Positions 16,701 through 19,700 of a DNA stretch of 64,000 bases are shown piece by piece. This DNA is from Escherichia coli (GTDB taxonomy: Bacteria; Pseudomonadota; Gammaproteobacteria; Enterobacterales; Enterobacteriaceae): the NCBI RefSeq assembly GCF_013122565.1, contig NZ_CP053258.1; one strand, written 5' to 3'. Position 1 is the stretch's first letter; every line of letters begins with the position of its first letter. The position numbers are program-made.

Positions 16701-19700
16701 TCCGGCCAGCGTTTTGGCGACGTCCGCAATCATCTGCCGCTGCGGCGCACGGGGAATAAAGTCGGGGATCTGTTCCTGAAGCGCCTTATACCAGGCGGCA
16801 ATTTGCGCTTTAAGCGCGGCGGTTAATGCCATGAGAAAACCTGAAATACTGTATAAACAGCCAATATTGTGGCATTTTTCGGTTTTCAGGGGTAATGGTT
16901 TTTCTGTTTCTGGAAAGCGGCTCGCAAACACGCCCTCTCGCAATATATTTGATTGAAAGTTCGACGGCACAGTGAGGCCAGTCTTCAGGGCAGAAAACAG
17001 CAAGTGATACCGCATTTCGTGGTTACACTTGCCACCGTCATCGCTTCGCAGAAATCGGTATTGCTCGCCCTGGCCTGAGCCAGGGCCATCAATGCCATTA
17101 TTCTGCTGCGATCTTTACACCCATGCGTCTGGCGTCCACTCGGATAAAACTTTAGAAAAACGATATTGTGCGTAGCGGACCATATCACGATATAACGAAC
17201 TTATGCGCAACTGGTTGGCCTCTTCATTAGACAGATTATTAAAATCAAGCAATACCGTTTTGTATGTATTAAAAGTTTGATTGCTTATCATACTTTCATC
17301 TAAAGAATGAGCTTTCGCCAATAAAGCAAATGCATAACGTTTTAAAGTTTTTGACGCATCAGGAATACCGTTAAAGACATTACTGTGAGAAATATTTGCA
17401 AATACGGCAGACAGGCAGAAAAATATTTTAGACTTATCACTTTCACTGGCCTCTTTGAGATCCAGCATCGTTAATAGATTAGCGTAATGTTTATCTTTCA
17501 GAGAATGCTGTTGCCATTGGTCTGAATCGGTCATCAAAGAGGAAAATGATGAATTAAGTTCTGTCGGTTGATTATTGCATTCGGGCACAAAGTCTGTTTT
17601 TCGCATTATTGCTGACATAAATACGTCACGAATATAACCTTTAAATCCAAGAGCATTGAGAATCAATTGGTGTTTCTTATTTCTCTGCGCATATTCCCAT
17701 CCTTTTGCAAATAAAGGGAATGTACGTGTACAAATCGTTTCTGGATCATCTCTGACAACTTCATGGATATCCTGCAAAGATGGATAAACAGAGTAATTAT
17801 TCCAGATGGTCTTTTTCTTAACTTCTGGCTCAAGCATTGAGATTAACGCCTGGTGCGATAAGCGCATTACTCGCCCAGAGTTATCGGATGATAACAGGAT
17901 ATAACATTTATTATCTTTATCTAACAATCCTTGCTGCTCATTGAAATTCAATTTTATGTCTTCAGTAACGAATTGTTTTATTTCAGGTAATGCAAGATAA
18001 TTGTGATAAAGGTCAAATGCTAAGTTTTTCTCTTCAACACTTCCGTTTTCAAAAAGCAAATCAATAAATTGAATAAATCTATAATTTTCAGAAACCATCA
18101 ACTCTGGTTTCTTTAAAAAAAGAGCATGGAAAAAGTTGATTATTTCCGCATCGTTACTCAGATTTTTATTTCTGAAGTAGCACAGATACGTATCCAGTGC
18201 GTGCATAACAAGTTCATGATCGCTATTAAGTGGAGATTTTATTAATTTTGCTATTATGGTTGATGGGAATGCCACTATGTCCCGCAGCGCGAAGAGCTCC
18301 ATGCCATCAGTTAATTGCGTTAACAGATCTTTTACTGTTTGTATGTTATCAGTACTATCATTGAAAGATTCGTCTGCCAGAGAATTCAGTTTTTCTATCA
18401 TCCCCCCGATTACAAATATATCTTTTTCGCTCTCCACGTCATGATTAGACATATCATCGATGATATCTTTAACTTTACTATCACTTTCAAATAGTTTTTC
18501 TCTCACAATATTATTAGCGTTTACTGCAGAAGTCGCATCATAATAGGATGGCGGAATAATAACAGAGAATTCGTTAGTGAATATAGAATGATCTGCAAGA
18601 TTATCATCATTCAATTTCTCGCCAACATTTAGCGAATTAACAGTCCTCAGAATATGCATCTCAATCTGACTGTCAGAAAGACTTTTAGAAAAACCACTAC
18701 CTTCAGTCAGTTCAATTTGCATCCTGAGTATTTTATTTTTGAGGTCGAGAAATGTATTTACATAAGGAATAAAAACATCTGATGAATTAGAGTTGTTTTT
18801 CTTTCCATTAATATTATCTATTCTAACGGTGATCCCTTTCTCATCACGAGGAATTGCATCATTCATATTTATAGAGATCACATTTTCATGTCTGGATTGC
18901 CCGGTTTTAATCGTCATATTGATATCATTTGCGCTGATCTCCGAAATCTCACTGACGAATTTTTTAAATGCATTATAGCGCTGGTGGCCAGCATTAAATT
19001 TGCCAAATGAAATATAATATGCGAAATGTTCAAGGAAACCATGTAATTCCAGTAAATTAACCGGGTCAGAACCCTGCACCATATTTAATAACATCGTCGC
19101 ATAACCATTGCATTTTGAACAATCCATACATCGCTCCTTTGCACTTGAATGATCTGCGAATCATAAGCCTGGCAAAATGGGGAATCTTACAGAAATCGCT
19201 CATTTTTAACTTTTCGTACTGCAAACTCAGGATTAACCTGGTTATGAAAGTTTGCTGCTGTACGGCTCTAAACAGACTGGCAATCAATCTTTCTATCAAT
19301 AAGCAGAAATGAGCGATTTTTGATAGTTAATTTAAATTACTTCATTGTAATACTTTGATTATCTATAGCTTGCACATAATGATTACTTATTATTTTTATC
19401 AATTTCAATTTGACGTATTAAAGGAGTTAATATGCATAATTTGTTTGAGCAGTGGCCATTATTTAAACCTAACACACCAGGCAATTCCAACTATTTCCCT
19501 GACAACTTATCTATTACAGATATGGTTTTCTGGTTCGATAATAATGCCAAAAAACTGTTAGATGTTATTAAAAAAACCACGAACCATGAACAAAAGCAAA
19601 TGTTCATTCAGCATTTAACATCAACCTTATATAATAACAAGGTATTAAACAATCCTTATCATTTAGAACCGCAAAAAATCTCGAATGAGCAGATAGCCTT

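Follow-up and report, generated by a model that had tools for sequence, protein, structure and literature searches.

LexA operators upstream of dinG and uvrB

The DNA analyzed in this study is a 64,000-nucleotide (nt) segment of the Escherichia coli chromosome (contig NZ_CP053258.1 of the RefSeq assembly GCF_013122565.1), referred to as the window, and its orientation is reversed relative to that of strain K-12. The dinG and uvrB genes are both located on the minus strand of the window, and each of them is preceded by a palindrome resembling the SOS box, the operator of LexA. The former is followed by ybiB, which is co-transcribed with dinG as the second gene of a LexA-controlled operon (PMC10123104), and is preceded by a cassette of low G+C (GC) content that carries espX2, a gene for a type III secretion effector, with rhlE on its far side; the latter is separated from bioD by an intergenic region containing DnaA boxes. 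We focused on the identity of the two palindromes and on the control of dinG next to the cassette. Operator identity, ranking, conservation, breakpoints, and cassette frequency were computed here; LexA and DnaA binding and induction by DNA damage were taken from the literature. Gene identities were assigned using NCBIfam equivalog models and the RefSeq annotation of matching genomes, and the coordinates of all features are listed in Table 1.

The sequence-only reading had placed the dinG palindrome at 16846-16867, and the operator itself was found to be a 20-mer inside this interval (plus strand, TACTGTATAAACAGCCAATA; dinG strand, TATTGGCTGTTTATACAGTA); the uvrB palindrome had been located exactly. 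Both were letter-identical to published LexA operators (PMC3009722 Table 4, and also PMC6015884 in the case of uvrB). The box was separated from the ATG by 14 nt in dinG (ATG at 16832) and by 74 nt in uvrB, compared with 14 and 73 bp, respectively, in Salmonella (PMC8072944). Both sites resembled TACTGT(AT)4ACAGTA, in which the CTG and CAG arms are ten bases apart (both arms in uvrB, the right one in dinG), overlapped or adjoined a promoter (a putative one in dinG), and were conserved (for uvrB, in an alignment within E. coli). Both genes are counted among the classical SOS genes; their heterology indexes are 8.6 (dinG) and 4.3 (uvrB), and they were induced by azidothymidine (AZT) 3.2- and 3.6-fold, with a lexA dependence of 1.7- and 2.0-fold, respectively (PMC11228462). 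Induction by nalidixic acid in Salmonella was 10.6-fold for dinG and 14.1-fold for uvrB (PMC8072944). Heterology indexes calculated by us (13.4 for dinG and 9.6 for uvrB) were based on 16 sites only, and are not comparable with the published values.

When the bare core CTGT-N8-ACAG was searched with no more than one mismatch, 17 sites were found against 16 expected. This search, showing no enrichment, was non-discriminating and missed dinG altogether, and was replaced by a matrix constructed from 16 other published LexA boxes, from which dinG and uvrB were left out (scores of the training sites: 13.6-27.8 bits). The uvrB box (23.2 bits) ranked first among the approximately 64,000 positions in the window, and its score was reached in none of 300 dinucleotide shuffles, which places it far beyond chance by score alone. 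The dinG box (14.1 bits) ranked second, and 39 of the 300 shuffled 64-kb sequences contained a position scoring at least as high; therefore, the dinG site needs to be read in its context. Four sites with at least 10.7 bits, including the two real operators, were observed against 0.94 expected. The hits at 14766-14785 (12.8 bits, in the 3' end of dinG) and 30524-30543 (10.8 bits, in an open reading frame (ORF) of 413 amino acids) were at the chance level and were rejected.

Conservation of the dinG operator

The context of the dinG box was assessed by scanning for the N-terminus of DinG, with one genome per species, which yielded 80 loci from approximately 25 enterobacterial genera. In all of the 80 species, the best matrix match within 140 nt 5' of dinG was the same box, located 13-15 nt before the ATG, with the pattern TA[G/T/A]TGGCTGTTTATACAGT[A/G] and few other changes. 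In the window, the left half-site of this box departs from the canonical form, with TTG instead of CTG, and the right arm CAG is present. The third base was G in most of the genera and the consensus C in none; of the four Escherichia genomes sampled, three had T at this position and E. whittamii had A. Since the consensus C never occurred at this position in the 80 species, the weak half-site looks maintained, which suggests that weak repression of dinG has been kept rather than arisen by accident. Such a left half would fit weak repression and the roughly 3-fold induction reported for dinG.

These data also bear on the possibility that the dinG palindrome resembles an operator by chance and has no role, and that the damage induction of dinG comes from something other than LexA at this site. 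The absence of the conserved CTG from the left half-site, a score (14.1 bits) reached in 13% of the shuffled windows, and the modest lexA dependence of 1.7-fold (PMC11228462) speak for this explanation. On the other hand, all 80 species kept the site, 13-15 nt before the ATG, while column identity fell to approximately 40-50% further upstream; furthermore, it is the published dinG operator (PMC3009722), and the induction of dinG by DNA damage has been observed in E. coli, Salmonella, and O157:H7 (PMC11228462, PMC8072944, and PMC5931665, respectively). We consequently regard a chance match as highly improbable. The dinG site is moderately unusual by sequence, and its position together with its conservation across the species settles its identity as a LexA operator.

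Promoter region of dinG

In the alignment of the 80 species, columns upstream of dinG were at least 90% conserved from approximately -46 to -1. The conserved block had the order GAAAnTGcCACAAT - LexA box - TTTCAGGTTTTCTC - ATG. A scan of positions 16700-17400 on both strands for sigma-70 promoter and terminator consensus sequences called neither a promoter nor a terminator; therefore, the anatomy of the dinG promoter was derived from conservation. TGcCACAAT is a putative extended -10 element that shares its final base with the start of the LexA box. TTACCC, which aligned with TTGCGA of other genera, may be a weak -35 hexamer, and this element was poorly conserved. The -10 and -35 assignments and the location of the transcription start were thus inferred by us from the alignment.

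In this arrangement, a LexA dimer on the operator would cover the likely transcription start of dinG, predicted near 16859, and, with the operator beginning at the last base of the putative -10 element, bound LexA would prevent RNA polymerase from using the dinG-ybiB promoter. This repression would be lifted after the RecA-stimulated cleavage of LexA. The 20-mer and all of the 95 nt upstream of the ATG were the same in K-12 as in the window, and ybiB was located downstream of dinG in both. Beyond this 95-nt block, K-12 possesses the divergent gene ybiA, whereas the window possesses the co-directional effector gene espX2.

Regulatory region of uvrB and DARS1

LexA-box1 of uvrB is known to lie between the -35 and -10 elements of uvrBp2, within the uvrBp1-2 promoters, and footprints of both DnaA and LexA have been reported for the uvrB region (PMC6015884). 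LexA would bind to box1 inside these promoters in the window. Two inverted DnaA boxes had been noticed further upstream of uvrB in the sequence-only reading. Both were real: TTATCCACA at 43332-43340, which alone in the 64-kb window matched the consensus exactly, and TTATCCACT at 43346-43354, inverted relative to the former. However, a third box with one mismatch, at 43320-43328, had been overlooked, such that the bioD-uvrB intergenic region contains three DnaA boxes, two of which are opposed. These correspond to DnaA-boxes 5-7, which constitute DARS1 and overlap uvrBp3 (PMC6015884); DARS1 promotes the release of ADP from ADP-DnaA, according to the literature quoted therein. The three boxes, approximately 300 bp upstream, form DARS1, an element that reactivates ADP-DnaA and also mediates the repression of uvrBp3 by DnaA.

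The boxes of the known uvrB cluster (uvrBp1-3, LexA-box1, and DARS1) were the same in the window in sequence, order, and spacing. The 545-bp bioD-uvrB region was 98.5% identical to that of a B strain, with few substitutions, none of which was in a box; the LexA and DnaA boxes were all unchanged in the alignment of the window with two other E. coli sequences, including the B strain.

Table 1. Regulatory sites, genes, and cassette elements at the dinG and uvrB loci of the window.
Feature	Position	Strand	Evidence
dinG LexA operator (SOS box), 20-mer	16847..16866	-	identity to published box; matrix rank 2; conservation
uvrB LexA-box1, AACTGTTTTTTTATCCAGTA (uvrB strand)	43010..43029	-	matrix rank 1; identity to published box; conserved
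DARS1/uvrBp3, three DnaA boxes	43320..43354	-	pattern search; B-strain identity; PMC6015884
Putative extended -10 element of dinG promoter, TGcCACAAT	16866..16874	-	lies in conserved -46 to -1 block
Possible weak -35 hexamer of dinG promoter, TTACCC	16890..16895	-	18 nt upstream of -10; inferred from alignment
dinG coding sequence (716 amino acids)	14682..16832	-	NCBIfam equivalog DinG, 1053 bits; RefSeq annotation of matching genomes
ybiB	13692..14654	-	NCBIfam equivalog YbiB, 501 bits; 27 nt downstream of dinG
uvrB	ATG at 42935	-	matching region lies between bioD and uvrB in RefSeq genomes
Relic of ancestral rhlE-dinG spacer, 95 nt	16833..16927	-	invariant in all E. coli haplotypes compared
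espX2 cassette, 4,294 bp, GC 0.34	16928..21221	.	left and right junction alignments; GC values
Cassette segment downstream of espX2, 187 nt, GC 0.52 (normal)	16928..17114	-	cassette-specific
espX2 (670 amino acids), type III secretion effector	17115..19127	-	RefSeq annotation; Pfam SopA_C, E = 1e-14 (C-terminal domain)
Orphan ORF (561 amino acids), GC 0.31	19432..21117	+	divergent from espX2
rhlE (454 amino acids)	21222..22586	-	NCBIfam equivalog RhlE, 982 bits; stop codon 21222-21224

Limits of the espX2 cassette

Six haplotypes were aligned at the dinG locus: the window, another strain with espX2 and the ORF, O157:H7 (espX2 only), K-12 (ybiA), a strain with a RelE-type toxin-antitoxin pair, and a strain with a NADAR fragment. 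All were identical from within dinG, through its ATG, to position 16927, and were unrelated from 16928 onward; the earlier proposal that the dinG operator had not been disrupted by the insertion was thus borne out. The left breakpoint is located 61 nt from the dinG box and 95 nt from the ATG. On the right, homology resumes at the rhlE stop codon, and both breakpoints are common to all haplotypes. The boundary of the islet had previously been estimated to be approximately 250 bp from the dinG box. This value holds for the drop in GC content, which begins at the espX2 stop codon (17115; 248 nt), but not for the break in homology; composition misplaced the boundary because the first 187 nt of the cassette have a normal GC content. 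Between approximately 17200 and 21150, GC ranged between 0.28 and 0.37. The cassette as a whole had a GC content of 0.34, against 0.50 for the window, and was polymorphic for presence or absence at a fixed site, as is characteristic of an islet.

The 187-nt segment was found only in the 541 cassette-bearing genomes (see below), even in a distant search mode, and neither the rest of the E. coli genomes nor the fetched loci contained a relative. It contains a G+C-rich hairpin (17067-17086) that is not followed by a U-tract. The predicted RNA fold of the whole espX2-dinG spacer was more stable than those of shuffled sequences (z = -3.5), and this spacer matched no Rfam family.

Content and distribution of the cassette

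Of the 5,426 complete E. coli genomes, 541 carried the cassette, each as a single copy and all at one site. espX2 corresponds to ECs0876 of O157:H7 Sakai and is transcribed toward dinG. The O-island of Sakai that carries it, between rhlE (ECs0875) and dinG (ECs0877), occupies the same slot with the same junctions and espX2 orientation, and its DNA was approximately 97.7% identical to that of the window. Unlike the window, which retains the orphan ORF, O157:H7, O55:H7, and O145 have mostly lost it by deletion; 156 of the 541 genomes with the cassette have it intact. No significant match for this ORF was found in Pfam, NCBIfam, or PDB sequences, and the possibility that it is a paralogue of EspX2 was rejected on comparison. 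Regarding signatures of mobility, no terminal direct or inverted repeats flanked the cassette, and neither of its two ORFs, the only ones present, is a recombinase. Replacement through homologous recombination across the flanking rhlE and dinG sequences is probably the likelier route.

The rhlE-dinG slot

Among the loci of other genera, rhlE was found within 2.5 kb of dinG in 56, and was directly upstream of and co-directional with dinG in 32 of these. The spacer between the rhlE stop codon and the dinG ATG in the 32 loci was 94-99 nt in length, and its parts were TTTGCGAG, an intrinsic terminator made up of GCCCGGCC-GAAA-GGCCGGGC with a T-run behind it, and the dinG promoter/operator. The 95-nt block of Escherichia starts with the same TTGCGAG as this spacer, and contains the promoter, operator, and ribosome-binding site of dinG in full. 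Since this block matches the ancestral spacer, all cassettes of Escherichia are bounded precisely by the rhlE stop codon on one side and by the spacer relic on the other. In this relic, the terminator hairpin is degenerate, and the espX2 cassette brings a different hairpin beside the rhlE stop codon.

The contents of the slot in Escherichia were ybiA, the RelE-type toxin-antitoxin pair, the NADAR fragment, or the espX2 cassette. In Salmonella, Klebsiella, Kosakonia, and some Citrobacter, the rhlE stop codon was followed by other inserts of greater length. Insertions recur at this point, directly behind the rhlE stop codon.

Other features of the window

Matches to three Rfam families were observed elsewhere in the window. 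A molybdenum cofactor (Moco) riboswitch at 39405-39549 (minus strand; 102 bits) is, judging from its position, presumably the known moaA leader. naRNA4, a nucleoid-associated RNA derived from repetitive extragenic palindromes (REP), at 12244-12314 (plus strand) and the small RNA ES036 at 40814-40855 (plus strand) both exceeded the gathering score. For positions 1-25000, the best match among the 5,426 complete E. coli genomes was approximately 98.4% identical, and the closest complete genome in the dinG region was only approximately 98.4-98.5% identical. Because of this low best identity, the lineage of the source strain is poorly represented in the genome set.

Regulation of dinG in cassette-bearing strains

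The sequence-only reading had raised the possibility that read-through or the spreading of H-NS from the AT-rich islet alters the regulation of dinG. Read-through from espX2 into dinG-ybiB would add LexA-independent expression, whereas H-NS filaments extending over the promoter would add silencing. Several features of the locus are in line with read-through: espX2 is co-directional with dinG, the 282-nt gap between its stop codon and the dinG ATG showed no recognizable intrinsic terminator (the hairpin at 17067-17086 is strong, but lacks a U-tract), and the spacer terminator of other genera is degenerate in Escherichia. However, the ancestral locus already has a co-directional gene, rhlE, upstream of dinG. 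As for H-NS, the AT-rich DNA starts 248 nt from the operator, behind the 187-nt segment with a normal GC content.

Expression data were available for the cassette-bearing O157:H7 strain PA20, which was analyzed by RNA sequencing after treatment with SOS-inducing sulfamethoxazole-trimethoprim. At 5 h, dinG (ECs0877) was increased by +1.60 log2 (approximately 3-fold; false discovery rate, 3e-6), whereas the increase in espX2 (ECs0876), +0.56 log2, was not significant (PMC5931665 supplement). The induction of dinG therefore comes from its own promoter. At 12 h, rhlE, espX2, and dinG were increased by +1.04, +0.98, and +0.90 log2 (approximately 2-fold), respectively, which is compatible with, but does not demonstrate, a shared transcript (PMC5931665). 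The magnitude of the induction at 5 h was approximately the same as that in islet-free K-12 (3.2-fold with AZT; PMC11228462), in a comparison between different conditions that is not a controlled one. These results indicated that dinG keeps its own damage-inducible promoter in a cassette-bearing strain, with a fold change roughly as in K-12. We regard an effect of the cassette on dinG regulation as unlikely.

A broader form of the read-through proposal is that the slot is recurrent across Enterobacteriaceae, that its use has removed a terminator insulating dinG in Escherichia, and that espX2 feeds LexA-independent, virulence-regulated transcription into dinG-ybiB in attaching-and-effacing strains. 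We consider this very unlikely; if true, read-through from espX2 would link the DNA-repair helicase DinG to the type III secretion regulon.

Conclusions

Taken together, we estimate a probability of approximately 0.93 that the two palindromes are the ordinary, already characterized LexA regulatory regions of dinG and uvrB, and that the espX2 cassette leaves the promoter and operator of dinG untouched. Three points weigh against this interpretation: the score of the dinG box alone is expected in approximately 13% of random 64-kb windows; a simple sigma-70 scan calls no promoter at dinG, the anatomy of which was read from conservation only; and the evidence on binding and expression all comes from strains other than this one. 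Both LexA operators, as well as DARS1, have been known for a long time, and the espX2 island that O157:H7 carries at the dinG locus has been catalogued since 2006. The present results are mainly of value for annotation, with two modest additions: the operator half-site of dinG that is conserved in a non-canonical form, and the compact control region of dinG at a cassette slot. This control region is very short, and the cassette junction lies 95 nt from the ATG, exactly at the position that the rhlE stop codon occupies in other genera. Since everything that dinG needs is contained in the 95 nt beside its ATG, cassettes swap at this slot without touching the promoter or the operator.

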